A stretch of 64,000 bases of DNA from Verrucomicrobiota bacterium (GCA_040386695.1 JAZKFB010000009.1:47436-111435); one strand, 5' to 3'; counted from the first letter of the stretch, positions 13,428 through 34,924 are shown. Translations and numbers: made by a program. The notes: generated by a model from the letters alone, not told the origin.

Positions 13428-13428
13428 T

Positions 13429-15576: not shown

Positions 15577-15772
15577 CCGGAAACGTCTTCCGGATCCACT
15601 CCTCCGCCAGCGGCGCGGAAGCCCGGCCCGCCTGAACGGAACCGGAAAACGCGGCGCGCCAGAGCTTTCCGGAACCTTCCGCTGAATCCCTCCAGGAACG
15701 CGGTTTTAAAAAATTCCGGCACGGCAAAGGCATCAGGCGGACGGTCCCGTCCCCTCCGGCCCCGGCCCTTTC

Positions 15773-16552
15773 ATGAACCCCCTCGAAGACACTCAAAGCC
15801 AGCAGGACACCCGTCAGGTCCCCATCCAGCGCGTGGGCATCCGCGGCTTGAGATACCCCATCACCGTCCTCCGCCCGGGCGGCGCGCCAGTCCCCACCGT
15901 GGCCAGCGCCACCCTGCTGGCCAGTCTCGCGGCCACGGAGCGCGGAACCCACATGAGCCGGTTCGCGGTCCTCATGCACACGCACCGGGACCGCATTGAT
16001 CCCCGGAACCTGCTGGAAATGGCGGAACAACTCCGCGCCAGCCTCCAGGCGGACGCCGCCCAGATCGTGCTGACCTTCCCGTGGTTTGTGGAAAAAGCGG
16101 CTCCCGTCACCGGCCAGCCCGGCATGGTGGATTACCAGGTCACCTGGGACGCCACCGTCAGCTCCGCCGGCATCAGATTCCTGACCACGGTGGTCGTGCC
16201 CATCGCCACCGTCTGCCCCTGCTCCAAAGCCATCAGCGACCGCGGCGCGCACAACCAGCGGGGCGAACTCACCCTGACCATCGCCAGCGCCACGCCTCCC
16301 TGGCCCGACGATGTCATCCGCATCGCCGAAGCCAGCGCCAGCTGCGAGCTTTACAGCGTCCTGAAGCGCCCCGACGAGAAATTCGTCACCGAGCGCGCCT
16401 ACGATTCCCCGTCCTTTGTCGAGGACGTCGTGCGCCAGGCCGCCCTCGGTCTGCGCGCCCTGCCGGGCATCGAATCCTTCCGCGCCCAGGCCGAAAACTT
16501 TGAAAGCATCCACAGCCACAACGCCTTCGCCATGGTGGAGGAAGGCTGGTGA
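15773..16552 (+). CDS. folE2: GTP cyclohydrolase I type 2 (GTP cyclohydrolase IB)
   Basis: 259 aa. IQRVGIRGLRYPI, GTHMSRF, VCPCSKAIS..GAHNQRG are FolE2/MptA family blocks. Confidence 0.9.
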   Translation: MNPLEDTQSQQDTRQVPIQRVGIRGLRYPITVLRPGGAPVPTVASATLLASLAATERGTHMSRFAVLMHTHRDRIDPRNLLEMAEQLRASLQADAAQIVLTFPWFVEKAAPVTGQPGMVDYQVTWDATVSSAGIRFLTTVVVPIATVCPCSKAISDRGAHNQRGELTLTIASATPPWPDDVIRIAEASASCELYSVLKRPDEKFVTERAYDSPSFVEDVVRQAALGLRALPGIESFRAQAENFESIHSHNAFAMVEEGW

Positions 16553-16761: not shown

Positions 16762-18366
16762 TCACTTCCCGAAGCTGTCCATCACGTTGAGATTTCCGCC
16801 GGGAGAGGCGCTGCTGGAAGGGACAACAATGGGGGTGCTGAATCCGGGAGGCCGGAAATCGGAGGCGGGAATCCTCAGCTGTGTTCCCGCGGGCGGCGCC
16901 ATCGTGGTGTCCGGAACAGACCCGGAGCCCGGCCCGTCCGCCGGAGTCCCGAACGTGTCCGGAAAAGGATTAAGAGTGGTGGATCGGGACTGATCCAGTT
17001 TCTCCTGCATCCGGTCCAGCTCCGTCTGCTGCGCGGTTTTGAATCCGGAGGGTCCCGCTTCCCCTGCGCGGGATTCCGCAATCCTGCGCCCTGTTTCCTC
17101 CAGACGCTCCCGCTCCTCCGCGGAGAATTGCGGGGAACTGTCCTTGAAAACCGCGCTGAGAAGATGCGCCGCCGCCCAGAGGATCACAAACGCCCAGCGG
17201 CCGGAGGGCAGCCAGTCCCTTTTGGATTTCGGCCGGACCGCCGCCTGGGCCTGGCGCACCTGGGCCAGGGTTTGATTCAGAACCGGTTCCGGCACCACCC
17301 GCGTGACCAGCGGCCAGCCTTCCCATTCCTGACCGCACCCGGCGATGACGGACTGCAGGGCGGACATGTTTTCCGGGCGGCTCCAGTCCGCCTCCCCGTC
17401 GCCGGATTCAAACAACTGGTGCTCCCACACCCGGCGGTGCGGCAGGGAAAATGCGGCAAACACCTTGCCCGCCGCGCTGCGGAGTTCGATTTCCCGGACA
17501 ATCTGCTCCCGCACGCCGGGGCCGGTCTGACGGTAAAGCTCATCCGCCAGACGGCTGGCGATATGGGGCAGATGAAAGGCCGCCATCTGCGCCGTGAAGT
17601 GCATGGCGCGCAGCATCGCGGGATCGTTCGCGATTTTCTGGTCCAGCATCAGATTCGCCAGCTGCGTCAGGCGGTTCAGCAGCGTGATCTCCTCCCGCCA
17701 GGTCATCAGAATGCGGGCCGCGCAGCCGCCTTCCCCGTGCCCCATGAGCAGCAGCACATCCTGGGCATGAATCTGCGGCAGCAGCCGGAGACCGCGCTCC
17801 GTCTGGAACAGGGCATCCAGAACCACCACCCACGGAGCCGCCAGCGCCGCCGGGTCCTCCCGGACCATGTTGCGCAGCATGTTGAACTCCGGGGATTCCG
17901 GAGCCTGGGCCACCCGCCGCAGCCGTTGCCGCAGACGCTCGCAGCCTGACAGAAATTTCTCCGGCAGATCCGGAAAATCCTCCAGCCGCCGGGGCGCGGG
18001 GGCGGCTTCGGCCTCGTCCGGCGGTCCCGAAGTTCCGGAATTCGAATTCGATTCCAAATCCCCGTCCGGCCCGGACTCCGTCCCTGCGGAACCGTCGCCC
18101 GTTTTTGAAGAATCCGCCGCTTCCGGCACCATCGGCAAAACCGGCGGCTCCACCGTCACCCCGGCCGGCGATGATGGATTTTCCAAATCCTCCCGGACAT
18201 CCCGCAGCGCCTGATGATAGGCCTCACTCACCCGCTGAAACCCTTCCGGATCCTGATCCGGCCGGTGCCGCTTCAACAGCCGGGCGTAGGCGCGTTTCAC
18301 CTCGCGCTCGCCGGAGGCGCTCCGGTCCAGCTCCAGCAGTTCCCAGGGATCAGGGGGAAAATTCAT
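16762..18366 (-). CDS. J-domain protein with C-terminal membrane anchor (DjlC/DjlB-like)
   Basis: Start ATG 18366 (MNFPPDPWELLELDRSASGEREVKRAYARLLKRHRPDQDPEGFQRVSEAYHQAL = J-domain helices I-III). One TM near the C-terminus (WAFVILWAAAHLLSAVF). It lies downstream of the Hsp70 gene on the same strand. Confidence 0.8.
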   Translation of the reverse strand: MNFPPDPWELLELDRSASGEREVKRAYARLLKRHRPDQDPEGFQRVSEAYHQALRDVREDLENPSSPAGVTVEPPVLPMVPEAADSSKTGDGSAGTESGPDGDLESNSNSGTSGPPDEAEAAPAPRRLEDFPDLPEKFLSGCERLRQRLRRVAQAPESPEFNMLRNMVREDPAALAAPWVVVLDALFQTERGLRLLPQIHAQDVLLLMGHGEGGCAARILMTWREEITLLNRLTQLANLMLDQKIANDPAMLRAMHFTAQMAAFHLPHIASRLADELYRQTGPGVREQIVREIELRSAAGKVFAAFSLPHRRVWEHQLFESGDGEADWSRPENMSALQSVIAGCGQEWEGWPLVTRVVPEPVLNQTLAQVRQAQAAVRPKSKRDWLPSGRWAFVILWAAAHLLSAVFKDSSPQFSAEERERLEETGRRIAESRAGEAGPSGFKTAQQTELDRMQEKLDQSRSTTLNPFPDTFGTPADGPGSGSVPDTTMAPPAGTQLRIPASDFRPPGFSTPIVVPSSSASPGGNLNVMDSFGK

Positions 18367-18590
18367 AACAGCAGTTCCCGTTGTATCATCCGGCGGAAAA
18401 CCTGACAACCTTTAACCTGATTCCAAAAACCGGACTTCGGATAAAACGGCTTCCCGGGAGAAACCGGGCCCTTCACTCAAGCGGGCAAGGCCGCTCACCT
18501 CCGCTGAATCCGCAGTTGTCCACTGAATCCGTGCCATCCGTTATATCAGTGCCATCCGTGGCCCGTCAGAACCGGTTGTGGCTCAGGCCG

Positions 18591-20282
18591 TTAATTGCGC
18601 GGCTCCTGCTCCGAGCGGAAAAACGGAGCCAGAAACGAATCCAGATCCTCCGCCGTGGCCGCGATGGCTTTGTCATCGTGACATGAAAGCGCGGACTCGA
18701 ACTGGTCGATAAGCTGATTCAGGCTGGTCCGGATTTCGCCCGTGAGTTCCGCATACAACCGGTTCGCGCGCTCCAGCCGCGCCCGGTGCGGCGGCAGGTC
18801 GCGGGGCCGGATTTTCAGGGGCGCGAGACGGCGCATGGCCGCTTCAATCTGCTCCGGCGTCATGCTGCCGGGCCGGTCCTCGAAAATTTTGGACGTCTTT
18901 TTCCCCGTGGCCATCACCGTGATCTCCACCTCCAGAATGCCGCTCATGTCATAGGTGAAACGCACTTCCACCACGCCGGGCATCCGCTGCTCAGGCTGAT
19001 GCTTCATGCCCTTCACCACCAGTTCGCCGACTTTGCGGTTCTCCTTCACCATGCGGCTCTCGCCCTGATAGACCTCAATCCGCAGCTCGTCCTGCTCCGG
19101 ATGCAGGGTGCTGAAAGTGTCGCTGCGGCTGACGGGCACCGTGGTGTTGCGGTCGATCAGGGGCTCGAAAAATCCGGACTCATGACGGCCCGGCATCAGC
19201 GCTTTGGCCACGGCCACGCCGAGGGTGTGCGGGCAGACATCCGTGAGCACCAGATCGCTCACCGCCTCATTGCCCGCGACCAGGGCCTGCTGCACCGCCG
19301 CGCCCATGGCCACCACGCGGTCCGGATCCAGATCATTCCGCAGGGTGCAGCCCAGCATTTCCCGGATGCCCTCGCCGACCAGGGGCATCCGCGTGGCTCC
19401 GCCGACCAGGAGCACGGAATCCAGATGCTGCGCCGTGATCCCGCCATCGCGCAGACAGCGCCGCACCACCGGCCAGAGACGGGCGGTCAATTCCAGGGTG
19501 GCGTTTTTAAAATCCTCCGGGCTCACCCACAACGAGCCTTTTTCCCATGTGAATTCCTGCGGCAGTCCCGCGCTGAGGCCGCGTTTCAAAGTCTCCACCT
19601 GCACCCGCAGACGCCCGGTTTTCAACTTGGCGGCGGGCAGTCCCGTTTTTTTCGCCAGCCAGTCCGCCAGCAGATCCGTGTAATCCTCGCCGCCCAGACG
19701 GCTTTCGCCGGACGAGGCTTTGACCTCCACCACGCCGTCAAACACCTCCAGCACCGTCACATCAAAGGTCCCGCCGCCGAGGTCAAACACCATCAGCGTG
19801 GAGTCGTCGCCCGGCCGCTGAAACCCCCAGGCCAGCGCCGCCGCCGTGGGCTCGTTCACCAGGCGCTCCACTTTCAATCCCGCGATTTTCGCCGCGTCCA
19901 CCGTGGCCTGGCGCTGAGGGTCGTGAAAATACGCGGGCACCGTGATCACCGCGCTCTCCACCGGTTTGCCAAGGCGCAGTTCCGCGATGCGTTTCATCTC
20001 CCGCAGAATCGCCGCCGAGCACTCGATGGGATTCCACTTCCGCCCGCCGAAGGAATACTGGGCGTCGGTTCCCATGTCCCGTTTGAAAAACGCCCGCCCC
20101 GCCTCCGGAGCCGCGATCAGCCGGTCCCGCGCCGCCCGGCCGGTCAGAATGGTGCCGTCCTCCGCCACCGCGACCACGCTGGGCGTGAGGGTGTCGCCGA
20201 ATTCATTCTCCAGAATCTCCGGTCCCTTCTCCCCGAGAACGGAGACAAGGCTGTGCGTGGTTCCCAGATCGATGCCTATCAT
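18591..20282 (-). CDS. hscC: Hsp70-family chaperone, HscC-like
   Basis: MIGIDLGTTHSLVSV, ITVPAYF...QRQAT..A..IAGL.V.RL.NEPTAAALA, FDLGGGTFDV, LVGGATRMP, length about 563 aa with a short HscC-like C-terminus. The track ORF (to 21434) has a Gly/Arg-rich false extension. Confidence 0.92.
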   Translation of the reverse strand: MIGIDLGTTHSLVSVLGEKGPEILENEFGDTLTPSVVAVAEDGTILTGRAARDRLIAAPEAGRAFFKRDMGTDAQYSFGGRKWNPIECSAAILREMKRIAELRLGKPVESAVITVPAYFHDPQRQATVDAAKIAGLKVERLVNEPTAAALAWGFQRPGDDSTLMVFDLGGGTFDVTVLEVFDGVVEVKASSGESRLGGEDYTDLLADWLAKKTGLPAAKLKTGRLRVQVETLKRGLSAGLPQEFTWEKGSLWVSPEDFKNATLELTARLWPVVRRCLRDGGITAQHLDSVLLVGGATRMPLVGEGIREMLGCTLRNDLDPDRVVAMGAAVQQALVAGNEAVSDLVLTDVCPHTLGVAVAKALMPGRHESGFFEPLIDRNTTVPVSRSDTFSTLHPEQDELRIEVYQGESRMVKENRKVGELVVKGMKHQPEQRMPGVVEVRFTYDMSGILEVEITVMATGKKTSKIFEDRPGSMTPEQIEAAMRRLAPLKIRPRDLPPHRARLERANRLYAELTGEIRTSLNQLIDQFESALSCHDDKAIAATAEDLDSFLAPFFRSEQEPRN

Positions 20283-20600
20283 AACGCCGGATTCTGACGG
20301 CGGACCCCGCACGCTGCAAGGGGAGCGGGAAGACAGGGACACCGCGGGAAATCTGGAGCTTGCTCCCGCTTTGGAAAAGGGGGCTTGCCCCCGCCGCGTG
20401 AATCGCCGCTCAACCGGCGAATAACATTTCAGGGCGCCGGGCGCGGGGCAAGCCCCGCTGGAGAAAGCGGAGGCAGGCCATCCGCACTCCAAAAAAATCC
20501 GGCAGTTGCTCAATAACGTAAACCGGCCATTTCCAGCCGAAGGAGCAATTTCCAAAAATTCCTGTCCGGTCCGCGGGCTCCGGCGGCGATATTCCGGTGA

Positions 20601-22796
20601 ATGCCCGCGCCTGATCCGAATTTCACCCGCTTCGCCGCCACCGGGGACGCCGAAGCGTTCCGCGCCCTTGTGGAGGAGCACCTGCCGATGGTTCAGGCCG
20701 TGGCCTGGCGGCGGCTGGGGGAAAATGCGCATCTGGCGGCGGATGTGTCGCAGGCGGTGTTCACGCGGCTGGCAAGGGTGGCGCGCGGGCTGCCTTTGAA
20801 TTTGATCCTCGCCGCGTGGCTGCACCGTCAGGCGGTGCGCCTGGCCATCGACACTGTGCGCTCGGAAACCCGCCGCCGTCTCCGCGAATCCACCGCCGCC
20901 GCCATGCTCCAGTCCTCCCGCGATGACGATCCCGATTCCCCCGCCCCGCCGCCCGCCTGGCAGCGGATCGCGCCGCTGCTCGACGAGGCCATGGACCGTC
21001 TGCCGGAAGCCGACCGCGCCGCCCTCGTGCTGCGGTTTCTGGAGGACCGCGATTTCGCCGCCGTCGGCTCGGCCCTGAAAACCTCGCCCGAAGCCGCGCG
21101 CAAACGCGTTGCCCGCAGTCTGGAAAAACTCCGCGCGCTCCTCAGCCGTCGCAGCGTCGCCCTGCCCTCCGCCGCCGTCCTCGCCGCCTGTCTTGCCCAG
21201 AATCACGCCCAGGCCCAAGCCCATTTCCTGACCGCCGCCGCGGGCACCGCATCCGCATCCGCCGCGAAGCTGTCGGCCGCCGCCATTTCCAAAACCGCCC
21301 TTACCGCCGCCACATCCACCACCGGAGCCGCCGCCAGCACCGCTGTCCTCACCACCTTTTTTATGTCCCACCTCACCTCCGCCGGAGTCGGCGCGGCTCT
21401 CATACTGATCGCCGCCGGGTTTTTCCATCAGCATCAGGAAGTGGAAATAAACCGCCGCCTTTCCACCGCCGCCGTCCCGGTTTCGCCGCCCGCCCTGTCC
21501 GCCGCCTCCCGGAAGGAAGCGCTTCCTGGCCGCCCGGGATCAGGCTTCTCCGGCCAAGCCGCTGAGGAGAACGGTCCCGGAACCCTGGCCGAAATCATCA
21601 ATGCTCTGGAAACCATCACAACCGGACCCGACGACCCCCTGGCCAGCCTGCGGATCGCCCTCCTTCTGAGAAAGGTTCCCCCCGCGCAGTATCTGGAATT
21701 TTACCTCACCGCTGAAAACCGGCTTCCTCCTCCGCGCTGGCGGACTGTCGTCTGGCGCTCCATCAGTGAATGGTCCCCGGTCGATCCCGGGGCTTTGTGC
21801 ATGGCCCTGTTTGATTCCGACAGCGCCAAAAAAGATCTGCTCCGGGAGAGCAAAGTGCGGTCCTCCCTGGCGCTGAACAGCCTGATCCTCGAGGCCCGCA
21901 CGGAGGGCGGCATGACGCTGAGAAGGATGTACCCTGAACCCTTCCGGGAATGGTTGAGGCGCGACCTTCCCGCTGCCGTGCGATGGGTGCAAAAGAACGC
22001 CGCAACGCCCATGCTCCGGTTCAGAATGGACATGTTCCAAAACAAGGCGCTGTCGGCGGACCTTCTGGAAATGGCCGCCGGGCAGCTTTCTCCGGGAGCC
22101 TCCGCCGACACCCTGAGGACTCTGGCTGGCGTGTCCCCGAATCCCGATCTTCACCGCTCCTGGGCCGCTGGCCAGTTGAAGGAAGGCCGGCCTTTCGAGG
22201 AAGCCATCACCCAGGCCGGCGGACCGCTGGAGGTCCGCGCCCTGAGCACTCAACTGGCGCTGAAAGATCCTGACGCCCTCCGGTCCTGGGTGCGCGGGGC
22301 CCCGGCGGATTCCCCCGCCAAATTTGACGCTGCCCTGGGCCTGGTCGGAGCTCCGGCCCTGGAGAGTGTCAGCGGCAGCAGCATGAGAACCCTGGAAGGC
22401 GCTGAATACCGGGACCGCGCGGCTTTCGCGCTGGAGCATTCGGGCGCGGTTCCCAGAAGTGAGGCCTTGAGGGAAATTGCCGGCGCCTGGGTGCGAGCGT
22501 CCCCTGAAGGCATGAAGGAACTCCGGGACTGGGTGAACAAATCCGGACCGCCCGGGGAAACGCAAAGCGCCCTGGAGACCGCCGCGCGTCTGCTTTCGCA
22601 AAACTGGCGGAAGCTTCCCGAAGCCATGGCCTTTGCCGCCGATGTCGCCGATCCCGCCCGGCGCGATTCCCTGCTGCGCGGGATGTTTCTCCGCTGGCGG
22701 GACACTGATCCCACCGCCGCCGCTAAATTTCTGACCACCGCCCCGCCTCCTGCCGCCGCCGTGCTGGAAGCTGTGATCCCCGCCGAACAGCCGTGA
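20601..22796 (+). CDS. ECF sigma-70 factor fused to a TM segment and a large W-x3-DP-x2-A-x2-W repeat domain
   Basis: Region 2: FRALVEEHLPMVQAVAWRRLG..AADVSQAVF..L...AWLHRQAVRLAIDTVR. Region 4: LPEADRAALVLRFLEDRDFAAVGSALKTSPEAARKRVARSLEKLR. TM: GVGAALILIAAGFF. Then about 440 aa with repeats such as FREWLRRDLPAAVRW, MFLRWRDTDPTAAAKF. Confidence 0.85.
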   Translation: MPAPDPNFTRFAATGDAEAFRALVEEHLPMVQAVAWRRLGENAHLAADVSQAVFTRLARVARGLPLNLILAAWLHRQAVRLAIDTVRSETRRRLRESTAAAMLQSSRDDDPDSPAPPPAWQRIAPLLDEAMDRLPEADRAALVLRFLEDRDFAAVGSALKTSPEAARKRVARSLEKLRALLSRRSVALPSAAVLAACLAQNHAQAQAHFLTAAAGTASASAAKLSAAAISKTALTAATSTTGAAASTAVLTTFFMSHLTSAGVGAALILIAAGFFHQHQEVEINRRLSTAAVPVSPPALSAASRKEALPGRPGSGFSGQAAEENGPGTLAEIINALETITTGPDDPLASLRIALLLRKVPPAQYLEFYLTAENRLPPPRWRTVVWRSISEWSPVDPGALCMALFDSDSAKKDLLRESKVRSSLALNSLILEARTEGGMTLRRMYPEPFREWLRRDLPAAVRWVQKNAATPMLRFRMDMFQNKALSADLLEMAAGQLSPGASADTLRTLAGVSPNPDLHRSWAAGQLKEGRPFEEAITQAGGPLEVRALSTQLALKDPDALRSWVRGAPADSPAKFDAALGLVGAPALESVSGSSMRTLEGAEYRDRAAFALEHSGAVPRSEALREIAGAWVRASPEGMKELRDWVNKSGPPGETQSALETAARLLSQNWRKLPEAMAFAADVADPARRDSLLRGMFLRWRDTDPTAAAKFLTTAPPPAAAVLEAVIPAEQP

Positions 22797-22867
22797 CCGC
22801 CGGCCCGCCCACCCCGTTCGCCGCCGCTGCTCCCGCGCTGGAAGCACGGGCCACTTTTGAAATCCTT

Positions 22868-24169
22868 ATGAACCGATCCTTTCTTGCCGCCACTGCCGGG
22901 GCCGCCACCGCCGCGGCGCTGGTCGCCATTCCCCTGATGCTGCAGCAGCGCCGGGCGGCCGCCAGCCTTCGCTTTCCAAGCCGTGGGATTCCTGCCAACG
23001 CAACCGCCCCCACGCCGCCGGAAACGGTGCTGTGGCAATGGAAAGCCGTTCAGGAAACCGGCTCCAAAGCAGACGCGGAGCTGCGGGCCGCCGAGTCAGT
23101 CCAGCATCTGAGCGCCGCCGAATGCCGCGCCGCCGCTGAGCAAACGCTGGCCGCAGGGGACAAATCTCCGCTGGCCGACCTGCTGGGCCGCTGGGCCTCG
23201 CTGGATGGAAAAGAAGCTTTCGCCTGGCTGGCGGAACACCCGGAACTGCTGGACGGAGTCATCGACAACGCCGGTCCCGCGTGGGCGGCATCAGACCCGG
23301 CGGGTTACGCCGCCTGGCTGCCCGGCTACCGTGTCGGCCCGGAAGCCAAAAGGTCCGGCCGGGGACGTCTGCCGGAGTTTGGAGCCGATTACATGCGCTA
23401 CAAATCCTCGCACTGGCTGGCCGCTTACGACCTTCCCGCCGCCATCCGCATCACCATGGAAAAAGTCCATGCCGCCGGCATCTCCCACCTTTATATCAAC
23501 CGCACGGAGCTTTCCCCTTTCATCCGCACGGCAAAAGACGCGGAAGCTCTTGGAGCGGAGATCGCGGCCCACCCGGAATGGGCGACGGATCTTCCGCGGG
23601 AAAAATCGCTGCGGGTGCTCGTGGCCCTGCGGGAGTGCTGGCAGGACCTTGACCCGGATGGCTGGGACCGCTGGGCGGAGGCGCATCCACTTTTTGCCGC
23701 CAAAGCGGAAAACGAGCCCGTGAGGCCGGCTCTCACTTTTCTCCGTGCCCGGGACCCGCAGGCCGCCGCTGATAAAATCCTCGCCACCGCCCCGCCGGAA
23801 AAACAGGCCGAAACCCTGGACGGTCTGATGCGTCTGTGGACGGAAACCGACCTCAACGCCGCTGGAACCTGGCTCAGCGCACAGCCGGAAAGCCCTGAAA
23901 AATGGAATGCCGTCCAGACCTTCGCCCTCGCCGCTGTAAAGGACGACCCCGAGGCCGCCCTGCAATGGGCCGCCAGCATTCCCGACTCCGCGCTGCAGGC
24001 CCGCGCCCGGCGCCGCGTCCTTGCCCACTGGGCCGACACCGATCCCGACGCCGCCAGCGCCTGGCTTTCCAGCTCGGGCTGGAGCGGATCACAACTCCAG
24101 GCCGCCCGGGACATCCTTGCCGCCGGGAAGCCAGGAGGACCTGAGGAAGCGCCAGTGCGCCATCAATGA
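22868..24169 (+). CDS. membrane-anchored W-x3-DP-x2-A-x2-W repeat protein (paralog 1)
   Basis: MNRSFLAATAGAATAAALVAIPLML anchor. Repeats LLGRWASLDGKEAFAWL, PAWAASDPAGYAAWL, RLWTETDLNAAGTWL, VLAHWADTDPDAASAWL. An alternative GTG start at 22793 overlaps the sigma stop (GTGA). Confidence 0.75.
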   Translation: MNRSFLAATAGAATAAALVAIPLMLQQRRAAASLRFPSRGIPANATAPTPPETVLWQWKAVQETGSKADAELRAAESVQHLSAAECRAAAEQTLAAGDKSPLADLLGRWASLDGKEAFAWLAEHPELLDGVIDNAGPAWAASDPAGYAAWLPGYRVGPEAKRSGRGRLPEFGADYMRYKSSHWLAAYDLPAAIRITMEKVHAAGISHLYINRTELSPFIRTAKDAEALGAEIAAHPEWATDLPREKSLRVLVALRECWQDLDPDGWDRWAEAHPLFAAKAENEPVRPALTFLRARDPQAAADKILATAPPEKQAETLDGLMRLWTETDLNAAGTWLSAQPESPEKWNAVQTFALAAVKDDPEAALQWAASIPDSALQARARRRVLAHWADTDPDAASAWLSSSGWSGSQLQAARDILAAGKPGGPEEAPVRHQ

Positions 24170-24209
24170 TACAAGGACCTGAATGGAAAACGCCGGAGGA
24201 GTTTCGCCT

Positions 24210-24716
24210 CTAATCCACATCAATCCGCGCCGGGAATCCGGGGCAAAGCCCGGACTGGACCACTGACTCCGGCGCGCTGAGCGCGGTGAAAAACTCCATG
24301 TTTCCCGCCTCGTCGCAGAGCCAGACCTCCTGCGCGCCTTTGGCGTAATAGAGCGTCATTTTCGCCAGCATCTCCTCCCGGCTGTTGGAGGGGGACAGAA
24401 TCTCCACGCAGATCTCGGGGGCGACGGGCAGGGCGGTGCTGCGTTTGTGCGGTTCCCAGCGCTCCCTCGACATCCAGCCCACATCAGCTACCCGCACCCC
24501 TTCGCTGGTACGGACGGGAGCTTCATTGATGATCTTTCCCTGCGGCAGAAGAATGCCCAGCATTTTCCCGATCTCGTATTCATAATTTCCATGCCAGGCG
24601 GATGCGGGACTCATGATGATCTGGTTACTCCGGTTGGTTTCGATTTTGTAAGGCAGGTCCTGCAATGAGCGGTCCTCCAGAATGTCCTCCCAAGTCATGG
24701 CTTTCATGCGTGACAA
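24210..24716 (-). CDS. Uma2-family (DUF820) putative endonuclease
   Basis: 168 aa. ..RVADVGWMS...PEICVEILSPSNSREEMLAKMTLYYAKGAQEVWLCDEAGNMEFF matches the Uma2 PD-(D/E)xK-like core (D...E.lSpsn....K...Y...G..e.W). GC is lower than in the neighbours. Confidence 0.82.
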   Translation of the reverse strand: MSRMKAMTWEDILEDRSLQDLPYKIETNRSNQIIMSPASAWHGNYEYEIGKMLGILLPQGKIINEAPVRTSEGVRVADVGWMSRERWEPHKRSTALPVAPEICVEILSPSNSREEMLAKMTLYYAKGAQEVWLCDEAGNMEFFTALSAPESVVQSGLCPGFPARIDVD

Positions 24717-24736
24717 ATACCGTCATCCGGGGTTTT

Positions 24737-27700
24737 ATGCAAACCGCATCCCCCTCCGCCATGAATGCCGGTTTTCTCCGTTCAGGATTTTCCGCCGCGC
24801 TGCTGTGGCTGGCGGGCACTTCCCTTCTCCGCGCGCAGACGCTGACTCCCATTCCTCCCGCCGCGCCGGGCCAGCCGCTGAGGCTGGAGAGTCCGCTTCA
24901 ATCCGGCAAACTGCTCCAGCTCGACGCCTCGCCGGATCTGTCCGGCTGGACGGAGATCGGCCGCTTCCACGATGCGCTGTTTCCCTATGCCGATGGCGGC
25001 GCATCGGGTGCCGGGGCGGCTAGGCGATTTTACCGCCTGCGCTCCTCCGTGCGGGTGGTGGCGGACGACTGGAAAAATCAGCTCCTGTTCCCGGAGGACG
25101 TCTTCCGGTCCCCCGAGGGCGACGGCGGGACGGTGCGCTGGGTGAAGTTCGCCCTGCGCCCCGAGGAGCCGTGGCGGGTGTATTTTCAGGACAGCGTGCG
25201 CTATCCCTTTCACTACGAATTCGCCACTTCCCGCCTGTCCCCGTTCGCCGGCATGACGCGGCCGCAGTTCGACGCCGTCTCCCTGCGCCGCGCCGGGCAG
25301 CGGGTGGTGCTGGGAGCGGTGCTGTTTCCGCCGCGCCCGAGTTTTCGGGAATACGCCGTGCAGTTCGTTGGCCTGGATGCCTACACGCCGGCGGAGGTCG
25401 GCGGGTGGTTTGCCTCCGTGAAAAACGCGGTTCACGCGGACAACGGCGGCGCGGGCGCGCTTTACATGCCGGTGTTTGAGCAAAGCGAGACCGCCAGGCG
25501 CGATGCGGAGGCCTTGGCCGCGCTGGGCGTCACCGTGGCTTCGGTGGACCGCTGGGTTCTGGGGCACCACATTTATTCGGCGGGCTGGGCGCTGGGACGG
25601 CTGAAGTTTTTTCCGTCAGGGGAAATCACCGCCGCCTTCACGGACGGACGGCTGCTGCCCACCGACATTCTCCTCACCGACGGCGTGCCTGCGGAAACCC
25701 CGCCGGTCGCGGGCATCATTTCCCTGACGCCCGCCACGCCCAACAGCCACACCGCCATCCTCGCGCAGTCCTTCGGCATTCCCTTCATCCACCTGCCGGA
25801 TGCCGCCGACCAGACCCGCGTCCGCGCCCTCGACGGACGGAAAGTGATCCTGCGCGCCCAGATTCAATACGAATCCGGAACCGTGAAGCTGATTGATGTT
25901 CACGAGACCCTGCCTCCGGCGGTGGAGGCCGAGCTTCTCGCCCTGAAAGCCCCGCAGCCGATTCTTTACACCCCGAAGCAGACACGCGGCGCGATCAGCG
26001 CCGACGTCACCAGTCTTCAGCCGGCGGACATCCGCTTCTTCGGAGGAAAAGCGGTGAACTACGGCCTCCTGCGCCGCGCCATTCCCGCGAACTGTCCGCA
26101 GGGAGTCGGTTTTACATTCGATCTCTGGGACGCTTTCATGGAGCAGACGCCGCCTGGCTTCAGCCGCCCGCTGCGTCAGGAAATCGCCGCGCGCCTGGCT
26201 CCCCATTCCACCTGGCCGCCGCAGATGGCAGCCATGAAATCGGCCTTGGCCGGCGTCCGGGAGCTGATCCGCCGCACCGCCGTTTTCCCGGAGGCGCAGC
26301 GTCAGCCGGTTTTTGATGCTCTGGCCAATTTCACGCCCGCCCGGAAAATCCGCTTCCGCAGCTCCACGAATGTCGAGGACGGCGCCACCTTCACCGGCGC
26401 GGGCCTCTACGACAGTTACAGCGGCTGCCTTCTGGACGATCTTGATCCCGACAGCGCCGGTCCCTGTCTCTGCGAACCCGGCGAGCCGGAGGAACGCGGT
26501 GTTTTCCGCGCCATCCAGCGGGTTTACGCCAGTTTTTACAACGACAACGCCTATCTCGAACGCCTGCGCCACGGCGTCGTGGAGTCCGAGACGGCGATGG
26601 GAATTCTGGCGCATCATTCCTTCCCCGATGAGGAGGAACTGGCCAACGGTGTGGCCGCGCTGGAATACCGTTACACCTTTTCCCAGACTGTTTCCGGCCC
26701 CATGGTCACGCAGGCCGGGGCGGAATCCGTGACCAATCCGGCGGGCGGCTCACTGCCGGAAATCGTGGATCTCTTCCGCTATGCCGCCACCACCACCCTG
26801 ACGCCGAAACAGGGTTCCTCGCGGCTGCCCCTGGGCGCGCAGGTGCTGACCTGGCAAAAGGATTACACCGGCTTCTCGGATCTTTTCAAAACGGTGGGCG
26901 ACGCCTGGCGGCAGCGCACGCCTGACAGAACCACCTTCAGTCTGGATTTTGAATACAAGAAGGATAAAAACCTCGGCCTGATCGTGAAACAGGTCCGCGA
27001 AATTCCCGCCGCGCCCGCCGGTTCCACCATTCCCTGGCTGATTGAGGAGCCGGTGATTCTTCAAGTCGCGCAGCGGGAATACGGCAATGTTTTCGCCAAT
27101 CACCGCCTGAAATCCGTCTGGAATCTGCGCACCGCCAATGGCCGGATCACGCCCGCGTTTCTGGCCGTCGGTCTTTACCGCACCGGCAGTCTGGAGCATG
27201 TGGAGAGCAGCGCGCGCCAAACCCTCTCCGGTCCTCTCTCCGTCTGGCCGGGCGCGACACTCTCCCCGGCTGGAACCCTGCATGGTTGGACCACCGGCAG
27301 TGGAGCGGGCCTTCGTCGCTGGAGCCTGGACACCGCCGTCACCACCACGGTGACCGGAAAAACGCCTCCGCTTTTCACAGCGTCCGATTTCCCCGTCACC
27401 CTCAGCGTCACCCACACCACGCCCCAGCCGCTGACCGAGTATAACGGCAACTTCCTCACCACCACCGAGGACAACGCGGCCCTCGAAACTCCGCGTGCGG
27501 TGACCCCCGGCTGCATCCCCGTCGAACGCCTGCTGGAAAACGGCAAAGGCATCAGCGTGCGCACCCGTTTCCTCTGGCCGGACGAGCCGCCCACCGCCGG
27601 CGGCTACACCGCGCCCCTGGTGAAATTTGAATCCACCACCATCACCGGCCTAGTTTCGAAACCCATCACCCTGACCAGCTACTGGTCCCAGACCTACCGC

Positions 27701-27880
27701 CCCGGCCATCACAATTTCACGGAGGACTTCATCTTCGAACCCGCCCTGGAACCGGGCATCGACGCCACGCTGCTGGATGAGCTGCGCGCCGCCAATATCC
27801 AGTATCTCCACGTCCGCGCCGGCTTCGGCGTGCCCGACATCAACGCCCTCGGCCTCGACGGCAAGCTGCGGCGGCTGTGA
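24737..27880 (+). CDS. large secreted/anchored protein with PEP-utilizer phosphohistidine domain followed by PPDK_N-type ATP-grasp domain
   Basis: 1048 aa from ATG 24737. Signal-like AALLWLAGTSLLRAQT. IISLTPATPNSHTAILAQSFGIPFIHL (swivel-His motif, His codon 25748-25750). FFGGKAVNYGLL (26036-26070) and RSSTNVEDGATFTGAGLYDSY..IQRVYASFYNDNAYLER..MGILAH are PEP/pyruvate-binding (PPDK_N) blocks. Confidence 0.8.
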   Translation: MQTASPSAMNAGFLRSGFSAALLWLAGTSLLRAQTLTPIPPAAPGQPLRLESPLQSGKLLQLDASPDLSGWTEIGRFHDALFPYADGGASGAGAARRFYRLRSSVRVVADDWKNQLLFPEDVFRSPEGDGGTVRWVKFALRPEEPWRVYFQDSVRYPFHYEFATSRLSPFAGMTRPQFDAVSLRRAGQRVVLGAVLFPPRPSFREYAVQFVGLDAYTPAEVGGWFASVKNAVHADNGGAGALYMPVFEQSETARRDAEALAALGVTVASVDRWVLGHHIYSAGWALGRLKFFPSGEITAAFTDGRLLPTDILLTDGVPAETPPVAGIISLTPATPNSHTAILAQSFGIPFIHLPDAADQTRVRALDGRKVILRAQIQYESGTVKLIDVHETLPPAVEAELLALKAPQPILYTPKQTRGAISADVTSLQPADIRFFGGKAVNYGLLRRAIPANCPQGVGFTFDLWDAFMEQTPPGFSRPLRQEIAARLAPHSTWPPQMAAMKSALAGVRELIRRTAVFPEAQRQPVFDALANFTPARKIRFRSSTNVEDGATFTGAGLYDSYSGCLLDDLDPDSAGPCLCEPGEPEERGVFRAIQRVYASFYNDNAYLERLRHGVVESETAMGILAHHSFPDEEELANGVAALEYRYTFSQTVSGPMVTQAGAESVTNPAGGSLPEIVDLFRYAATTTLTPKQGSSRLPLGAQVLTWQKDYTGFSDLFKTVGDAWRQRTPDRTTFSLDFEYKKDKNLGLIVKQVREIPAAPAGSTIPWLIEEPVILQVAQREYGNVFANHRLKSVWNLRTANGRITPAFLAVGLYRTGSLEHVESSARQTLSGPLSVWPGATLSPAGTLHGWTTGSGAGLRRWSLDTAVTTTVTGKTPPLFTASDFPVTLSVTHTTPQPLTEYNGNFLTTTEDNAALETPRAVTPGCIPVERLLENGKGISVRTRFLWPDEPPTAGGYTAPLVKFESTTITGLVSKPITLTSYWSQTYRPGHHNFTEDFIFEPALEPGIDATLLDELRAANIQYLHVRAGFGVPDINALGLDGKLRRL

Positions 27881-28034
27881 GCTGTTTCCGCAGATGCCGG
27901 GCGCTCAGGTCCTGACAGTCCACCTGTTTCATTCGGCCCTCAGTCTTCCCATGCGGTCTCAAAGCGCCGATAGTTCCCCGGTTTTTTTTACAGTTTATCA
28001 TTTTCTTCGACCTGAAATCTGTCAGCTTCGGCTG

Positions 28035-29255
28035 GTGAAACTCCGGCCCGCTCCATTCCTTGTTCTGCTCCTGGCGGCAGCCGCCGGAGGGTATTTCACC
28101 GGAAAGGCCTGTAACCCTTCTCCTTCCGCCGGTTTGCCCGTTCCAGCTGGGGAGCCTCTGCCCGCCAGGGCTTTACTGCCGGGGCCGGCTTCGGGATTTT
28201 ATTCACTGGCCAAAACAGGATCCGACGCGGTTCCTGAAATCCTCGCCGCTCTCGATCAGGCCTCCCCGGCCGGACTGCGGCGCATGGCGGAGGAACTGCT
28301 CGGCGATCCCCGGAGGCGGCGGGATCAGGGATTGTGGGCTCCCCTGCTGGCGAAGTGGTCGGAGTTGGACGGTGCGGGCCTCGTGGCCTTCGCCCGGGCG
28401 CTTCCTCCGGCGGACCGCGGCTGGCTGGAGGGAAAAGCCTGGTATACCTGGGGAGCCTCAAACCCCGCCGCAGCCTCCGCGGCCGGAGGCACCCTGCCAA
28501 AAACCTGTCTCCGCGAGCTGATCCAGGGCATGAGCCGCAAGGACCCGCAGGCCGCTCTCGATTTCGCGCTCCGGATGCCGGAGGCCCAGATGAATGTGTG
28601 GCTTCTTTCCGATGCCTTGAAAGCGCTGCCACCCGAAAGGCTGGAATCCCTTCTTCCGAGGGCCATTTACGACGGCATGAGAATGCCCCTGCGGGCCGCC
28701 CGGGCCGCCGCTCTGGTGGAGACAGATCCCTCCGCCGCCCTCGCGGCCACGTCCCCTCAACTCGGCCACGACGGCGTGCCCGCCACTCTGGCCCTGATCG
28801 CCGAAAAGGATCCCGCCAAAGCCCGGGAGCTGCTGTCGGCCATGCCCTCCAGCCGCTCGCGGGCGCTTTCCTCCCTGAGTCTGGCGCGCACCTGGGCGGC
28901 TCAGGATTCCGGGGCCGCTCTGACCTGGGCGCGGCGGGATCTTCAGTGCCCCGTGCGTCAGGCCGCGCTGCTGGAAATCGCGGCCGTCTCCGGAGGATCG
29001 GCGCCGGCGGAGGCCCTCGCCCTGGTGGAGGAGGCCGGATGGACGGGGCAGGGAAACTTCGGAGCGGTGCGGGGAGGAAATCACATTCCCGTGGAGGCCG
29101 CCGGCTTTCCCTCTCCCGTAAAAACCGCCGGACTGCTGCTCCAGCAGCTTCAGTTGCTGGACGCGGAGATGGCGCGGCAATATCTCCGGAACCGGGTGCC
29201 GGAGGAATACCGCGCCCAAGTGGCGAAAAAAGCCGGCATGACTTTGGAACCATGA
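28035..29255 (+). CDS. membrane-anchored W-x3-DP-x2-A-x2-W repeat protein (paralog 2)
   Basis: GTG 28035 gives (M)KLRPAPFLVLLLAAAAGGYF, matching the short-N-terminus plus TM layout of the paralogs. ATG alternatives are 27951 and 27894. Repeats LLAKWSELDGAGLVAF, MSRKDPQAALDFAL, LARTWAAQDSGAALTWA. Confidence 0.7.
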   Translation: MKLRPAPFLVLLLAAAAGGYFTGKACNPSPSAGLPVPAGEPLPARALLPGPASGFYSLAKTGSDAVPEILAALDQASPAGLRRMAEELLGDPRRRRDQGLWAPLLAKWSELDGAGLVAFARALPPADRGWLEGKAWYTWGASNPAAASAAGGTLPKTCLRELIQGMSRKDPQAALDFALRMPEAQMNVWLLSDALKALPPERLESLLPRAIYDGMRMPLRAARAAALVETDPSAALAATSPQLGHDGVPATLALIAEKDPAKARELLSAMPSSRSRALSSLSLARTWAAQDSGAALTWARRDLQCPVRQAALLEIAAVSGGSAPAEALALVEEAGWTGQGNFGAVRGGNHIPVEAAGFPSPVKTAGLLLQQLQLLDAEMARQYLRNRVPEEYRAQVAKKAGMTLEP

Positions 29256-30961
29256 AAACTCTCCCCGCCGCCGTCGCCCTGATTCTTGCCGCCGGAGCCG
29301 GGTTTTCCCTCGGCTGGTATCCTGACGGCCGGGGCCACGGACTGACTGCGGAGTCCCCGCGCGCCGCCGCCAGGAGGGAATCGCCTCCACCGCCCGCGCC
29401 AGCCCCCGCCTCAAAACTTCCCGGTTTTGCGCTGGAACTGCCTGACCTTCCATCCGCCGATGCCTGCCGCCTGTTTCTGAAGGAGCTGGACACGCGCTAC
29501 CGGGGCCGGCATCCGCTGCTGCGGGATACCGCCCGGGATTTCGCCCTCCGGCGCTGGCTGGAGCTGGATGCGGAAAGCGCCCTCGCGGAGGCCGAACGCG
29601 GTTCCGGCTCCAAGGGCATCGGCAACGACCTCTTCCGCGTCTGGCTGGACCTGAATCCGGAGTCCGCCATCGCCGCCTGGAATCAAACCAGCCCCGCGCT
29701 GGCGGCAGCCACCCGGGACTCCTTCCTCTCCACCCTCGCGGAGACTGATGTTGCACGGGCTTTTGCGCTCCTGTCCACGCCCCGGGGAAAATCCGGTTGG
29801 GCATTCTCGGATCCGGCCGCAGAGGCCATTCTCCGCCTCTGGGCGCAGCGGGATCCTCTGGCCGCCCTCGCGGCGGCAAAACCCCCGGACGAGGACAGCC
29901 CGGAGGGCAGGGCGCGGGTCCAATTTCCACGGGACGTCATCTTCGAGGCTTGGGCCTCCTCCGACCCCGCCGCCCTTTTCGCCTATGCAAAAATAAGCCC
30001 GAATTCCGAGAGCTCCTTGGAAAATCTCGCCGGATGGCTGGTGCCGGCGCTTCTGAAATCCGATCCCAAAGCGGCCGCCGAAGTCATCGCCGCCTGTGCG
30101 GACTCCACTTACAGTCTGGCCTCCAAATGGGCGGACAACGACCCCCGGTCCGCCCTGGGGTGGGCGGAAACCCAGCCGGTGGACTCGCGGCAGGCCCAGG
30201 CCGTGAAACTTCATGCTGCCCGCAAATTGGCCACGGCGGATCCACTGCGCGACATTGCCCTGCTGGGAGATTGCCGCAGTGCCGCCTCCGGAGACCAGGG
30301 CTATTGGCTCAACGAGGGATACCGGGAAGCCTTCGCGTCCCTCTCGGCCACGGATCCGGACAAAGCCCGGGAAATGATTGCCGGGAATCCGGACCTGGCC
30401 ACGTCGGGCGTCAATGGCTACCTGACCCATGCCTTCGCCAAAGATGCGGCGGAGGCCATCGCCCAGGCGCGGAAGTGGCTGGAGGTCCCCGCGCTGGCAG
30501 CCACCGTCGTTCCCGCCATCCGCATGGCTTACAGCATGTCCAACGGGGCTCCGGCAAGGGACTTTTCCCCGGTGCTGGCGGCCATGCCGGAACTCGCTTC
30601 CCGGGTGGATGCGGAGACGCTGCGGGGCTGGGCCATGGCGGCCCCGGAATCCGCCGCCGAATTCCTCGCCTCGCGGGAGGCTGCGGGAAAGCCGGTGGCC
30701 GGAGTGAAGGACGCGGCGGTGCTCACCAGCATCGCCAACGCCCGCCCCGAATGGACCTCCCAATGGCTGAGCGGCCTGCCGGAAGGTTTGCTGCGCCAGG
30801 ACACGGCGGAAATGCTGAGCGCCAACTGGAGCGCGTATGACCCCGGAGCGGCAAAAGACTGGATCGATTCCCTGCCCCCCGGACCTTCGCGGGAAGCGGC
30901 CGTCAAAGCCTGGGATAAACGTCTTGAGGTGCCCAACAATCCATTCCTGCTGGAGGATTGA
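29252..30961 (+). CDS. membrane-anchored W-x3-DP-x2-A-x2-W repeat protein (paralog 3)
   Basis: ATG 29252 overlaps the previous TGA (ATGA). MKTLPAAVALILAAGAGFSLGW anchor. Repeats RVWLDLNPESAIAAW, RLWAQRDPLAALAA, EAWASSDPAALFAY, SKWADNDPRSALGWA, ANWSAYDPGAAKDWI. The track start 28334 adds an Arg/Gly-rich false extension. Confidence 0.8.
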   Translation: MKTLPAAVALILAAGAGFSLGWYPDGRGHGLTAESPRAAARRESPPPPAPAPASKLPGFALELPDLPSADACRLFLKELDTRYRGRHPLLRDTARDFALRRWLELDAESALAEAERGSGSKGIGNDLFRVWLDLNPESAIAAWNQTSPALAAATRDSFLSTLAETDVARAFALLSTPRGKSGWAFSDPAAEAILRLWAQRDPLAALAAAKPPDEDSPEGRARVQFPRDVIFEAWASSDPAALFAYAKISPNSESSLENLAGWLVPALLKSDPKAAAEVIAACADSTYSLASKWADNDPRSALGWAETQPVDSRQAQAVKLHAARKLATADPLRDIALLGDCRSAASGDQGYWLNEGYREAFASLSATDPDKAREMIAGNPDLATSGVNGYLTHAFAKDAAEAIAQARKWLEVPALAATVVPAIRMAYSMSNGAPARDFSPVLAAMPELASRVDAETLRGWAMAAPESAAEFLASREAAGKPVAGVKDAAVLTSIANARPEWTSQWLSGLPEGLLRQDTAEMLSANWSAYDPGAAKDWIDSLPPGPSREAAVKAWDKRLEVPNNPFLLED

Positions 30962-32597: not shown

Positions 32598-32730
32598 GCG
32601 CGGTTGCCGGTCCGCAGGAACCGTGGGGGAAATTTCACCTTTGCCGCTGGAGCCTCGCTCATGCCGGGGGACTTACCAGCAGGATGCATTCCGTCAAGCT
32701 GCGTTGCTTTGCGCCGGTTTTGCATCCGGC

Positions 32731-32790
32731 GGATCGGCCGGATCGGCCGGATCGGCCGGATCGGCCGGATCGGCCGGATCGGCCGGATCA
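32731..32790. repeat. 9-bp tandem repeat (GGATCGGCC)x6 plus degenerate flanking units
   Basis: Six perfect units at 32731-32784, preceded by GCATCCGGC and followed by GGATCAGGCC. It is intergenic between the phosphoesterase stop and the ABC permease start. Confidence 0.97.
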
Positions 32791-33300
32791 GGCCGGGGAC
32801 TTTTCCCCGGCCAGGCGCACGTGGGTGAAAGTCCCGTCCCTTGTGTCATAAAGCCCGAACGAGGGATCGCCGAAACGCCCCATCAGCTCGCCCGGATTGG
32901 CCCACAGGGTGCGGCCTTTCTGATGGTGGTATTGCCGGTGATCGTGCCCGGTGAAAACAGCATCGTAAGCCTGACTCTCGGCCAGTCTCACCCCGATTTC
33001 CGGAAAATGATGCAGCGCGATTTTCCGCCCGCCCGCCTCCAGTTCCGCCAAGGGCGCGTGCAGAGTGACATGAGGGTGCCTCGACGCGATGCGGCACAGC
33101 AGGAAAATATCGCCGTCGTTGTTCCCGAACACCGCATCCACCGGTCCCGCGAACCCCTCCGCCAGCGCCGCCAAAGTGAAGGGCGCGCAGAAATCCCCCA
33201 GATAAAACAGCCGCTCCGCTCCCGATTCCCGCACCAGATCCAAAGCCCGGGCCAGATTTTCCAGATGATCATGACAATCGCTCAGCACCGCTATTTTCAT
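32788..33300 (-). CDS. metallophosphoesterase, YfcE/MJ0936 family
   Basis: MKIAVLSDCHDH, LGDFC, GNNDGD, HH, TGHDH are the calcineurin-like phosphoesterase metal motifs in the right order. 170 aa. Confidence 0.88.
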   Translation of the reverse strand: MKIAVLSDCHDHLENLARALDLVRESGAERLFYLGDFCAPFTLAALAEGFAGPVDAVFGNNDGDIFLLCRIASRHPHVTLHAPLAELEAGGRKIALHHFPEIGVRLAESQAYDAVFTGHDHRQYHHQKGRTLWANPGELMGRFGDPSFGLYDTRDGTFTHVRLAGEKSPA

Positions 33301-33975: not shown

Positions 33976-34818
33976 CTACCGGCGGCGGCGCTTCAGGAGC
34001 AGACCGTAAAGACCGAGGGAGGCGAAAACAGCCCCGGAAGGCTCGGGAACCGCGTCGCTGAAAGCGGTGCTCACCTTGAGATTGTCCCAGGAGACATCCG
34101 CGCCCGGGGCTGACGCCAGCCGCACCGCTGTGGACCAGTTGGTGCCGGTGTAGGCCAGGGAGACATCGGCCGAGCTGGTCGCGCCGGAATCAAAATCCGC
34201 GCCATTGGGATTCACCCAGAGTTTGAGCAGATCATTGTCAAAATCGACCGCCGCCACCAGCGAATAGGTCTGGCCCGCCACAATCGCGATGCTCGACAGC
34301 GCGGAGGCGGCCCCGCTGATGCCAATCCCGAAAAAGCGGTCGGTGGTGCCTTGGGAAAGCATTCCAAAGAAAACGCGTTCCGCATCAAAATCGTAGGAAC
34401 TGAGGCCACCCCACTGACCGGTGCCGCTGGCGAACAGGGAGGACACGGAATAAGTCGTGGAGAAATAAGCCACTCCCGCCCCGCGGAAAGCCCCCTCGCG
34501 CTCATTGGTCCCGGCGGCGGAACCGCTGGTGGCCCCGCTGAACTCCCGCTTGGCCGCCGTGCCATTGGTCACCAGCAGACCGCCGGTGACCTGAGGAGCA
34601 CCGGTCAGGGCGTCCCAGTTGGAGGCGGTCGGCGCCGGAGCTCCGGCTTCATCCGTCCGTTCGTAATTCCAGCCTGTTCCGCCCGTTTGCCCCGCAATCG
34701 CTCCATTGGCGTAGGCAAAACCATCAAAGCCCACCACGGCAGCCCCGGCGGAACTCAAAGCGGCGGCGGCAAAACCAAAAATCATAACCCGACTGAGACG
34801 GCTGGCGGAAATCTTCAT
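33976..34818 (-). CDS. PEP-CTERM sorting-signal protein, function unknown
   Basis: Start ATG 34818: MKISASRLSRVMIFGFAAAALSSAGA signal. C-terminus DAVPEPSGAVFASLGLYGLLLKRRRR. Confidence 0.8.
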   Translation of the reverse strand: MKISASRLSRVMIFGFAAAALSSAGAAVVGFDGFAYANGAIAGQTGGTGWNYERTDEAGAPAPTASNWDALTGAPQVTGGLLVTNGTAAKREFSGATSGSAAGTNEREGAFRGAGVAYFSTTYSVSSLFASGTGQWGGLSSYDFDAERVFFGMLSQGTTDRFFGIGISGAASALSSIAIVAGQTYSLVAAVDFDNDLLKLWVNPNGADFDSGATSSADVSLAYTGTNWSTAVRLASAPGADVSWDNLKVSTAFSDAVPEPSGAVFASLGLYGLLLKRRRR

Positions 34819-34824
34819 GAAACT

Positions 34825-34853
34825 ATAATTAGATACAAGTTCACGTCTGTCAA
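34825..34853 (-). promoter_or_regulatory. candidate sigma70-type promoter for the PEP-CTERM gene
   Basis: On the minus strand: TTGACA (34853-34848), 17 nt, AATTAT (34830-34825), in an AT-rich patch. The -10 ends 6 nt before ATG 34818, implying a leaderless or very short-leader mRNA. Pattern match only. Confidence 0.25.
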
Positions 34854-34924
34854 CAATTATGCCTGATAAAATGAAATCTGTCACGGGCGCGCCGGGTTTC
34901 CTGCCCGCCGCCGGCAGGAGCAGC

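Follow-up and report, generated by a model that had tools for sequence, protein, structure and literature searches.

A membrane-spanning ECF sigma factor fused to a periplasmic repeat solenoid, and its conserved paralogous partner, in Verrucomicrobiota

Our analysis of a 64,000-nucleotide stretch of DNA (hereafter the window), part of a high-GC (about 65%) Verrucomicrobiota metagenome-assembled genome (GCA_040386695.1, JAZKFB010000009.1:47436-111435), concerns four genes, A to D, which lie on the plus strand within 10.4 kb and were all found where a preliminary description of the same DNA had placed them. Gene A encodes a sigma factor of the extracytoplasmic function (ECF) type in which a cytoplasmic sigma part is followed by a flexible linker of about 70 residues, a single membrane helix and, in the periplasm, a solenoid of some 400 residues. 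Gene B, which encodes an anchored solenoid protein sharing a module with A, is linked to the sigma gene across lineages and is the dedicated partner of A. Sigma factors with a membrane-spanning C-terminal extension are already known (IutY, ECF48/52/53 and the variable extensions of Planctomycetes ECF sigmas); what is new here is an unnamed family of 32-residue repeats, its recurrent fusion to sigma factors, a conserved paralog in the position following the sigma gene (+1) and a conserved promoter-like motif. We tentatively read A as a one-polypeptide transmembrane sigma sensor that would work with B and be released by proteolysis, a mechanism that we infer from the arrangement of the locus and from its likeness to better-studied proteins.

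A is an ECF (group 4) member of the sigma-70 family, with regions 2 and 4 present and regions 1.1 and 3 absent. It matches Sigma70_r2 (PF04542) at residues 23-92 and Sigma70_r4/r4_2 (PF04545, PF08281) at residues 127-179, all above cutoffs, and TIGR02937 gives 65.9 bits (cutoff 42.9, E 3e-18) with 163 of the 165 model positions covered. Using phmmer, residues 11-182 align with SigE of Mycobacterium tuberculosis (E 2.7e-12) and with SigW of Bacillus subtilis, and Foldseek relates the N-terminal part of A to AlgU and sigma-E with a probability of 1.0. Across 11 A orthologs the core-binding and DNA-binding positions (regions 2.2, 2.3/2.4 and 4) are invariant, including D48, Q51, F54, W73, L74, R76 and the helix-turn-helix of region 4; the loss of such residues, which the preliminary description had named as a finding that would speak against its proposal, was thus not seen. 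All the NCBIfam sigma subfamily models scored far below their cutoffs for A (for example, 40 bits against 183.75 for the Planctomycetaceae-specific TIGR02984).

Beyond the sigma core, hydropathy and the AlphaFold2 (AF2) model bear out the single membrane helix and large extension that had been proposed for this 731-residue protein. The linker (residues 185-257) is of low complexity and modelled with a predicted local distance difference test (pLDDT) value below 50, and it carries a weak consensus, RRG...AAL..AL...A, common to A and related sigmas that bear other extensions. The only hydrophobic segment lies at residues 258-276 (1.75 in a 19-residue Kyte-Doolittle window) and is followed by 455 residues; AF2 places a helix at residues 261-289. 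Among the A orthologs this helix has the consensus AALLAAGLFYQ, with G264 and L269 invariant. A proline/alanine-rich stretch of low model confidence (residues 285-322) leads to the domain at residues 325-728, modelled at pLDDT values of about 85-95 as a helical solenoid of helix pairs with two small hairpins. Full-length orthologs fall into 10 clusters at 39-61% identity, all of which keep the sigma, membrane helix and periplasmic domain, and their extensions hold many invariant columns. The wider relatives of A are sigmas of 470-1100 residues with a membrane helix near residue 230 (the median start in 68 relatives), whose extensions include HEAT, TIGR03435, CarboxypepD_reg and WD40 domains. 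Between residues 185 and 731 of A there was no match to FecR, zf-HC2, RskA or any other Pfam or NCBIfam model at E ≤ 1. Likewise, Pfam and NCBIfam searches found no recognisable anti-sigma domain in the linker, in B or in the neighbouring genes, in agreement with the earlier statement that the region holds no separate anti-sigma gene. Membrane anchoring of B, C and D is predicted from a hydropathy scan, with which a cleavable signal peptide would also be compatible.

The repeat that gives the solenoid its character recurs in all four proteins, as had been noticed at the outset, and every repeat peptide quoted at that time could be located. A six-frame translation of the whole 64 kb holds four instances of the strict pattern W-x3-DP-x2-A-x2-[WFY], always within A, B or D. 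A 25-column hidden Markov model (HMM), seeded on six instances, iterated inside A-D and counted at ≥10 bits, finds 3 units in A (beginning at residues 445, 546 and 693), 5 in B, 5 in C and 9 in D, compared with none in 50 shuffles of A-D and none in the window's other 148 stop-to-stop segments of at least 150 residues. The consensus of the unit is RELLRAWAATDPAAARAWAEASP, and the 1004 distances between units measured in relatives peak at 32 residues, with 64 and 96 next in frequency. The preliminary description could not assign the repeat to a named family, and nor could we: the repeat family has no Pfam, NCBIfam or PDB sequence match, Pfam repeat models (TPR, HEAT, Sel1) match neither A-D nor 13 relatives at E ≤ 0.1-1 (sub-threshold ELYS matches apart), and PDB-sequence profile searches with the B- and D-family alignments returned nothing meaningful. 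Foldseek against the PDB gives generic TPR, HAT and HEAT solenoids only (E 2e-3 to 0.3, TM-score about 0.2). The DP-x5-W spacing resembles the turn between TPR repeats; the period here is 32 residues, as opposed to 34.

The second gene, B, follows the sigma gene in all seven of the independent lineages seen, the window included, with orthologs that are 42-71% identical. The junction is a 4-nucleotide overlap in L001-3 and L004, as well as in L012, a locus reached through B, and in most lineages overall; adjacency is also found in L005/6 and in L014 (reached through B in a collection of species genomes), and the proteins P0001 and P0084 form a further sigma-B pair on a single 7.9-kb contig. The flanking genes are different in each lineage, so that conservation is limited to the sigma-B pair. 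In the window itself, the start of B is most likely ATG 22868 and not GTG 22793, judging from the alignment of ortholog N-termini at that ATG and from the NCBI model of 433 residues, to which B is 100% identical; the start/stop overlap at 22793-22796 described previously, which depends on the GTG, is therefore probably unused in this genome. B is modelled as all-helical (AF2 pLDDT 80), and P22, L23 and Q26 of its anchor are invariant in the orthologs. B and its orthologs have only 3-5 residues (4 in B) before the hydrophobic segment, which leaves no room for a cytoplasmic anti-sigma domain. B was considered as a class I membrane anti-sigma factor and excluded, as it lacks the N-terminal cytoplasmic domain of about 80 residues ahead of the membrane helix.

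A bipartite motif, TGTCCGG-N16-GCG(A/G)(T/A)A (GCGRWA in its second half), ends 9-10 nucleotides before the start codon in all six of the sigma ortholog lineages compared (the window, L001-3, L004, L005/6, L012 and L014). In each of them an A/T-rich stretch lies ahead of it. The copy in the window reads TGTCCGG-N16-GCGATA and is unique within the 64 kb, where 0.05 occurrences would be expected by chance, and related motifs precede more distant sigma fusions. Its conservation and position suggest that it is a clade-specific, probably autoregulated ECF promoter, whose transcript would have almost no leader. No exact match was found upstream of C-D or elsewhere in the window, and a search allowing two mismatches did not discriminate; scans for sigma-70 promoters and terminators were at background. 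Direct repeats (GGGCTTCCAGCCAGTGCGTCCAAC) were also seen by eye in the intergenic region upstream of the sigma gene of L001 (7480-7600).

Pairwise BLASTP among A-D gives marginal matches only, and paralogy had to be judged by profile comparison. With hhalign, C and D score 97.7% (E 2e-12), B and D 95.6% (E 1e-8), and B and C 94% (E 1.4e-7, over nearly the full length). Residues 559-713 of A score 96% against residues 253-402 of B (E 2.8e-9), A against D reaches 78% (E 1.7e-5), and A and C are not similar at the profile level (1.7%, E 0.029). Since repeat proteins inflate profile-profile scores, we take these values as evidence for one superfamily. They support B, C and D as paralogs of one another and a module shared between A and B, and BLASTP cross-matches between A-type and B-type proteins appear in several lineages. 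The C-terminal module of A and B is the most specific link among the four proteins. We also considered the sigma-B pair as a sigma-tagged version of a C-D-type pair, with A corresponding to C and B to D; this was rejected on the A-C score and because B is similar to C as well as to D.

A hydrophobic segment falls within roughly the first 25 residues of each of B, C and D. C and D, the remaining two of the three downstream proteins that had been grouped with the sigma factor in one system, form an independent and widely conserved two-gene module of the same superfamily that is not dedicated to this sigma system, so that of the original grouping only the part concerning B stands. The overlap between C and D at 29252-29255 (ATGA, 4 nucleotides) is real; homology best fits GTG 28035 as the start of C, an assignment that is uncertain. 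D has 28 ortholog clusters (E <1e-59), and the three loci L007, L008 and L009 each hold a C ortholog (34-58% identical) and a D ortholog, with a 4-nucleotide overlap between the two and no sigma gene within 10 kb. In the window, B and C are set apart by two unrelated genes, one of them on the opposite strand. In L001 the sigma-B pair is followed by another, divergent pair of paralogs that is not orthologous to the C-D of the window.

An exhaustive HMMER search with the D-family profile shows the size of the superfamily: 11,240 clusters at 50% identity have a representative matched at E ≤ 1e-3, and 3,977 have one matched at E ≤ 1e-10. The majority of members carry an anchor and lack a sigma domain. 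Among the 121 listed representatives of at least 500 residues, the hydrophobic segment falls inside the first 40 residues in 76 and further along the protein in one, 38 have no segment above the threshold used, and 6 (about 5%) are ECF sigma fusions with a membrane helix near residue 230. Members often stand in tandem as pairs or arrays with short overlaps, and the majority of these lack a sigma gene within 10 kb. The preliminary description had counted a family scattered without sigma linkage as evidence against itself; this scatter is found for the superfamily as a whole, but not for the B subfamily. The 22 loci recovered from species genomes are all from Verrucomicrobiota (Akkermansia, Opitutales, Chthoniobacterales and Limisphaerales, with two bins of doubtful label), to which the family appears to be confined. 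A stand-alone ECF-type sigma gene lies near a repeat array in L017 and L035; the latter, an Akkermansia sp. contig, has four tandem paralogs of the repeat family (9071-16446). A metagenome-assembled genome of Akkermansia muciniphila (L025, 2971-4404) encodes an anchored protein of 477 residues in which 32-residue WxxxDPxxAxxW repeats follow one another with great regularity. A. muciniphila thus has the family, but when a link to the Akkermansia mucin-utilisation (MUL) genes was looked for, the family could be tied to no named gene.

Fusions of sigma factors to these repeats are not limited to A and its orthologs. In L011 the gene after a fusion overlaps it and encodes an anchored paralog. In L038 (8001-12675) a fusion of 869 residues is followed by an anchored protein of 647 residues, 45% identical over some 600 residues to the membrane helix and periplasmic part of that same sigma, which makes it a recent copy of the sensor half that lacks the sigma part. 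L010 (5196-10332) has two fusions (772 and 876 residues) in tandem, then an N-terminally anchored protein cut by the contig end. On a crude neighbour-joining (NJ) tree of sigma cores, repeat-fused sigmas stand at no fewer than four separate places among sigmas with other extensions, in line with the multiple origins that have been described for extensions in Planctomycetes (PMC7671368).

Several known systems come close to A without matching it. IutY of Pseudomonas putida (ECF243) has the same order of parts, with an ECF sigma at the N-terminus, a single membrane helix and a periplasmic domain at the C-terminus, and its sigma is freed by regulated intramembrane proteolysis (PMC8999054). However, the extension of IutY is a FecR-type anti-sigma that works with a TonB-dependent receptor, whereas the periplasmic part of A is a TPR-like solenoid of an unnamed family whose conserved partner is a solenoid paralog; with neither a FecR-like nor a class I anti-sigma domain, A was rejected as a sigma/anti-sigma hybrid of the IutY type. 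The actinobacterial SCO4117/ECF52 proteins, and also ECF48 and ECF53, have a long membrane-crossing C-terminal extension with an extracytoplasmic binding domain, and activation of SCO4117/ECF52 by processing has been proposed (PMC8999054, PMC5826349). ECF52 differs in its ZAS-like zinc finger, proline-rich region, carbohydrate-binding domain and phylum: A, from a Verrucomicrobiota host, has no HxxxCxxC motif, no cysteine in residues 1-190 and no carbohydrate-binding Pfam match, and was not assigned to ECF52 or ECF53. Planctomycetes ECF sigmas, including ECF57, share the same broad sigma clade and have highly variable extensions of multiple origin (PMC7671368, PMC7826278, PMC8999054). ECF57 itself is defined by WD40-like repeats and two conserved cysteines that link sigma regions 2 and 4 (PMC8999054); A has no WD40 match and no cysteine in its sigma core, which argues against membership, and its WD40-bearing relatives are distant only (E 1e-8 to 1e-15). 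In the published accounts of Planctomycetes ECF sigmas that we consulted there is no mention of a 32-residue repeat extension or of a conserved +1 paralog. ECF42 also joins an ECF sigma to a helical-repeat protein-interaction domain, with regulation through a partner protein proposed, but its extension of about 200 residues is cytoplasmic and matches TPR models, while the repeats of A are extracytoplasmic and have no Pfam TPR match. In Escherichia coli, RseB binds the periplasmic domain of the membrane-spanning RseA and gates its proteolysis. B may be likened to RseB by function only, RseB being unrelated in sequence and fold, and RseA is a separate anti-sigma factor that is not fused to the sigma.

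The reading towards which we lean, while granting it somewhat less than an even chance, is that the periplasmic domain of A would act as a sensor or a protein-binding platform, and that B would bind this domain, or compete with it, through the shared C-terminal module. Cleavage of the tether or of the membrane helix would pass the signal on, and the freed sigma could then join RNA polymerase and transcribe from the TGTCCGG-N16-GCGRWA promoter of its own operon. IutY and SCO4117/ECF52 offer precedents for release by proteolysis (PMC8999054). A number of observations weigh against this proposal. Both the contact between A and B and the cleavage are postulated, the linker has no recognisable anti-sigma domain that could hold the tethered sigma inactive, and no protease gene is linked to the sigma-B pair, whose neighbours vary between lineages. 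The positive charges (QQRR) just after the hydrophobic segment of B leave its topology in some doubt, and the 96% score between A and B may overstate specific homology through repeat inflation. In addition, the +1 paralog is missing from two of the three fusion loci recovered by the exhaustive search (L036 and L037), and the assignment of the putative promoter implies a nearly leaderless mRNA.

The same features of the linker can be turned round: the sigma could be active while still tethered, in the manner of ToxR or CadC, with a long, flexible, low-complexity segment that would allow it to bring RNA polymerase to DNA close to the membrane, and with the solenoid and B modulating its activity by conformational or oligomeric change. 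The low model confidence of these 70 or so residues, the missing protease gene and the fact that A has no fused anti-sigma domain in need of removal all suit this alternative, which we nevertheless consider unlikely, because the membrane-bound fusions studied by experiment have been reported or suggested to become active through processing (shown for IutY, inferred for SCO4117; PMC8999054) and because a permanent tether sits badly with the need of a sigma factor to associate with core enzyme and, after that, to clear the promoter. We give similarly little credence to the view that the fusion is an evolutionary by-product, in which duplication placed a sigma gene ahead of a gene for an anchored repeat protein, the repeat domain has no regulatory role and B is merely co-transcribed in the regulon or is the second member of a former pair of paralogs. 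The usual organization of the family in overlapping tandem pairs or arrays without a sigma and the scattered positions of the fusions on the NJ tree would fit such an origin, and Pinto & da Fonseca trace unrelated Planctomycetes extensions to fortuitous insertion (PMC7671368). However, the fusion, membrane helix, periplasmic domain and B are kept together in orthologs down to 39% identity, with many invariant columns in the extension, and conservation of this depth argues for selection on the whole arrangement.

A four-protein system, in which the periplasmic domain of A would heteromerise with B, C and D, seems improbable to us. It draws on the common strand, the common repeat and the proximity of the four genes, and on L001, where a further paralog pair comes directly after sigma-B. 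Yet C-D occurs without a sigma gene in the three other loci, two unrelated genes intervene in the window, the A-C score is very low and the pair in L001 is a different one; with 11,240 clusters in the family, chance adjacency of A-B with C-D is plausible. Finally, since the source is a metagenome-assembled genome, a frameshift or misjoin of a sigma gene and a separate anchored gene has to be considered. This artefact is refuted by independent assemblies, the same continuous open reading frame (ORF) having been recovered by different assemblers from separate samples in at least 10 ortholog clusters, besides the further sigma-repeat fusions, and we regard it as barely conceivable.

The features of the window discussed above are collected in Table 1.

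Table 1. Positions of the sigma-B locus, the C-D module and the genes between them in the window.
Feature	Position	Strand	Evidence
Conserved promoter-like bipartite motif	20563..20591	+	Exact pattern match upstream of every sigma ortholog
Gene A, 731-residue ECF sigma with membrane helix and periplasmic solenoid (NCBI MES2705490.1)	20601..22796	+	
Sigma core of A: region 2 (residues 23-92) and region 4 (residues 127-179)	20667..21137	+	Pfam, TIGR02937, Foldseek, phmmer
Cytoplasmic Ala/Ser/Thr-rich linker of A, residues 185-257	21153..21371	+	pLDDT <50
Predicted single membrane helix of A, residues 258-276, HLTSAGVGAALILIAAGFF	21372..21428	+	Kyte-Doolittle, AF2 helix
Periplasmic alpha-solenoid domain of A, residues 325-728	21573..22784	+	AF2
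C-terminal module of A, about 150 residues (559-713), homologous to B residues 253-402	22275..22739	+	hhalign
Gene B, 433-residue anchored solenoid paralog (NCBI V4726_02700)	22868..24169	+	100% identity to NCBI model
Uma2-family gene	24210-24716	−	
1071-residue protein with PPDK_N match	24665-27880	+	
Gene C, about 406 residues, likely start GTG 28035 (ORF 27777-29255)	28035..29255	+	Homology
Gene D, 569-residue paralog (NCBI V4726_02720)	29252..30961	+	100% match to NCBI model

Other genes of the window deserve a brief mention. The 1071-residue protein encoded between B and C has a signal-like N-terminus, a PPDK_N match (E 6e-10) and a weak PEP-utilizers match; a secreted or periplasmic protein resembling phosphoenolpyruvate (PEP) synthase would be unusual. 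In L001, where the arrangement is contiguous, both this gene and the Uma2-family gene are missing. Divergent from the sigma gene, at 16762-20280 on the minus strand, a 548-residue J-domain protein (weak DnaJ match) adjoins an Hsp70-family gene, a pair that is not kept beside the sigma orthologs. Further downstream, a 9-bp tandem repeat, CGGATCGGC (7.3 copies, 98% identity), lies at 32730-32796 between genes for an ABC permease and a YfcE-like phosphoesterase, and a 302-residue protein at 33976-34884 (minus strand), with no Pfam match, ends in VPEPS...LLKRRRR, which resembles a PEP-CTERM sorting tail.

Many ECF sigmas of Verrucomicrobiota and Planctomycetota carry membrane-spanning extensions that are unexplained and, to our knowledge, none of them has been studied experimentally. 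The locus described here is a compact, conserved and testable case, which brings together a sigma fusion, a dedicated paralog as partner and a candidate autoregulated promoter. One may speculate, with less conviction than for proteolytic release itself, that it represents a new form of sigma control in which the part of an anti-sigma would fall, within the periplasm, to a paralog of the sensor domain instead of a cytoplasmic anti-sigma domain, the two solenoids exchanging or competing at the 150-residue module, and that the repeat family makes up a periplasmic interaction network spanning Verrucomicrobiota into which sigmas have been plugged several times independently. The family itself is very large and has been left unnamed by Pfam, NCBIfam and the PDB, and it has members in A. 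muciniphila, a gut bacterium for which genetic tools are available.

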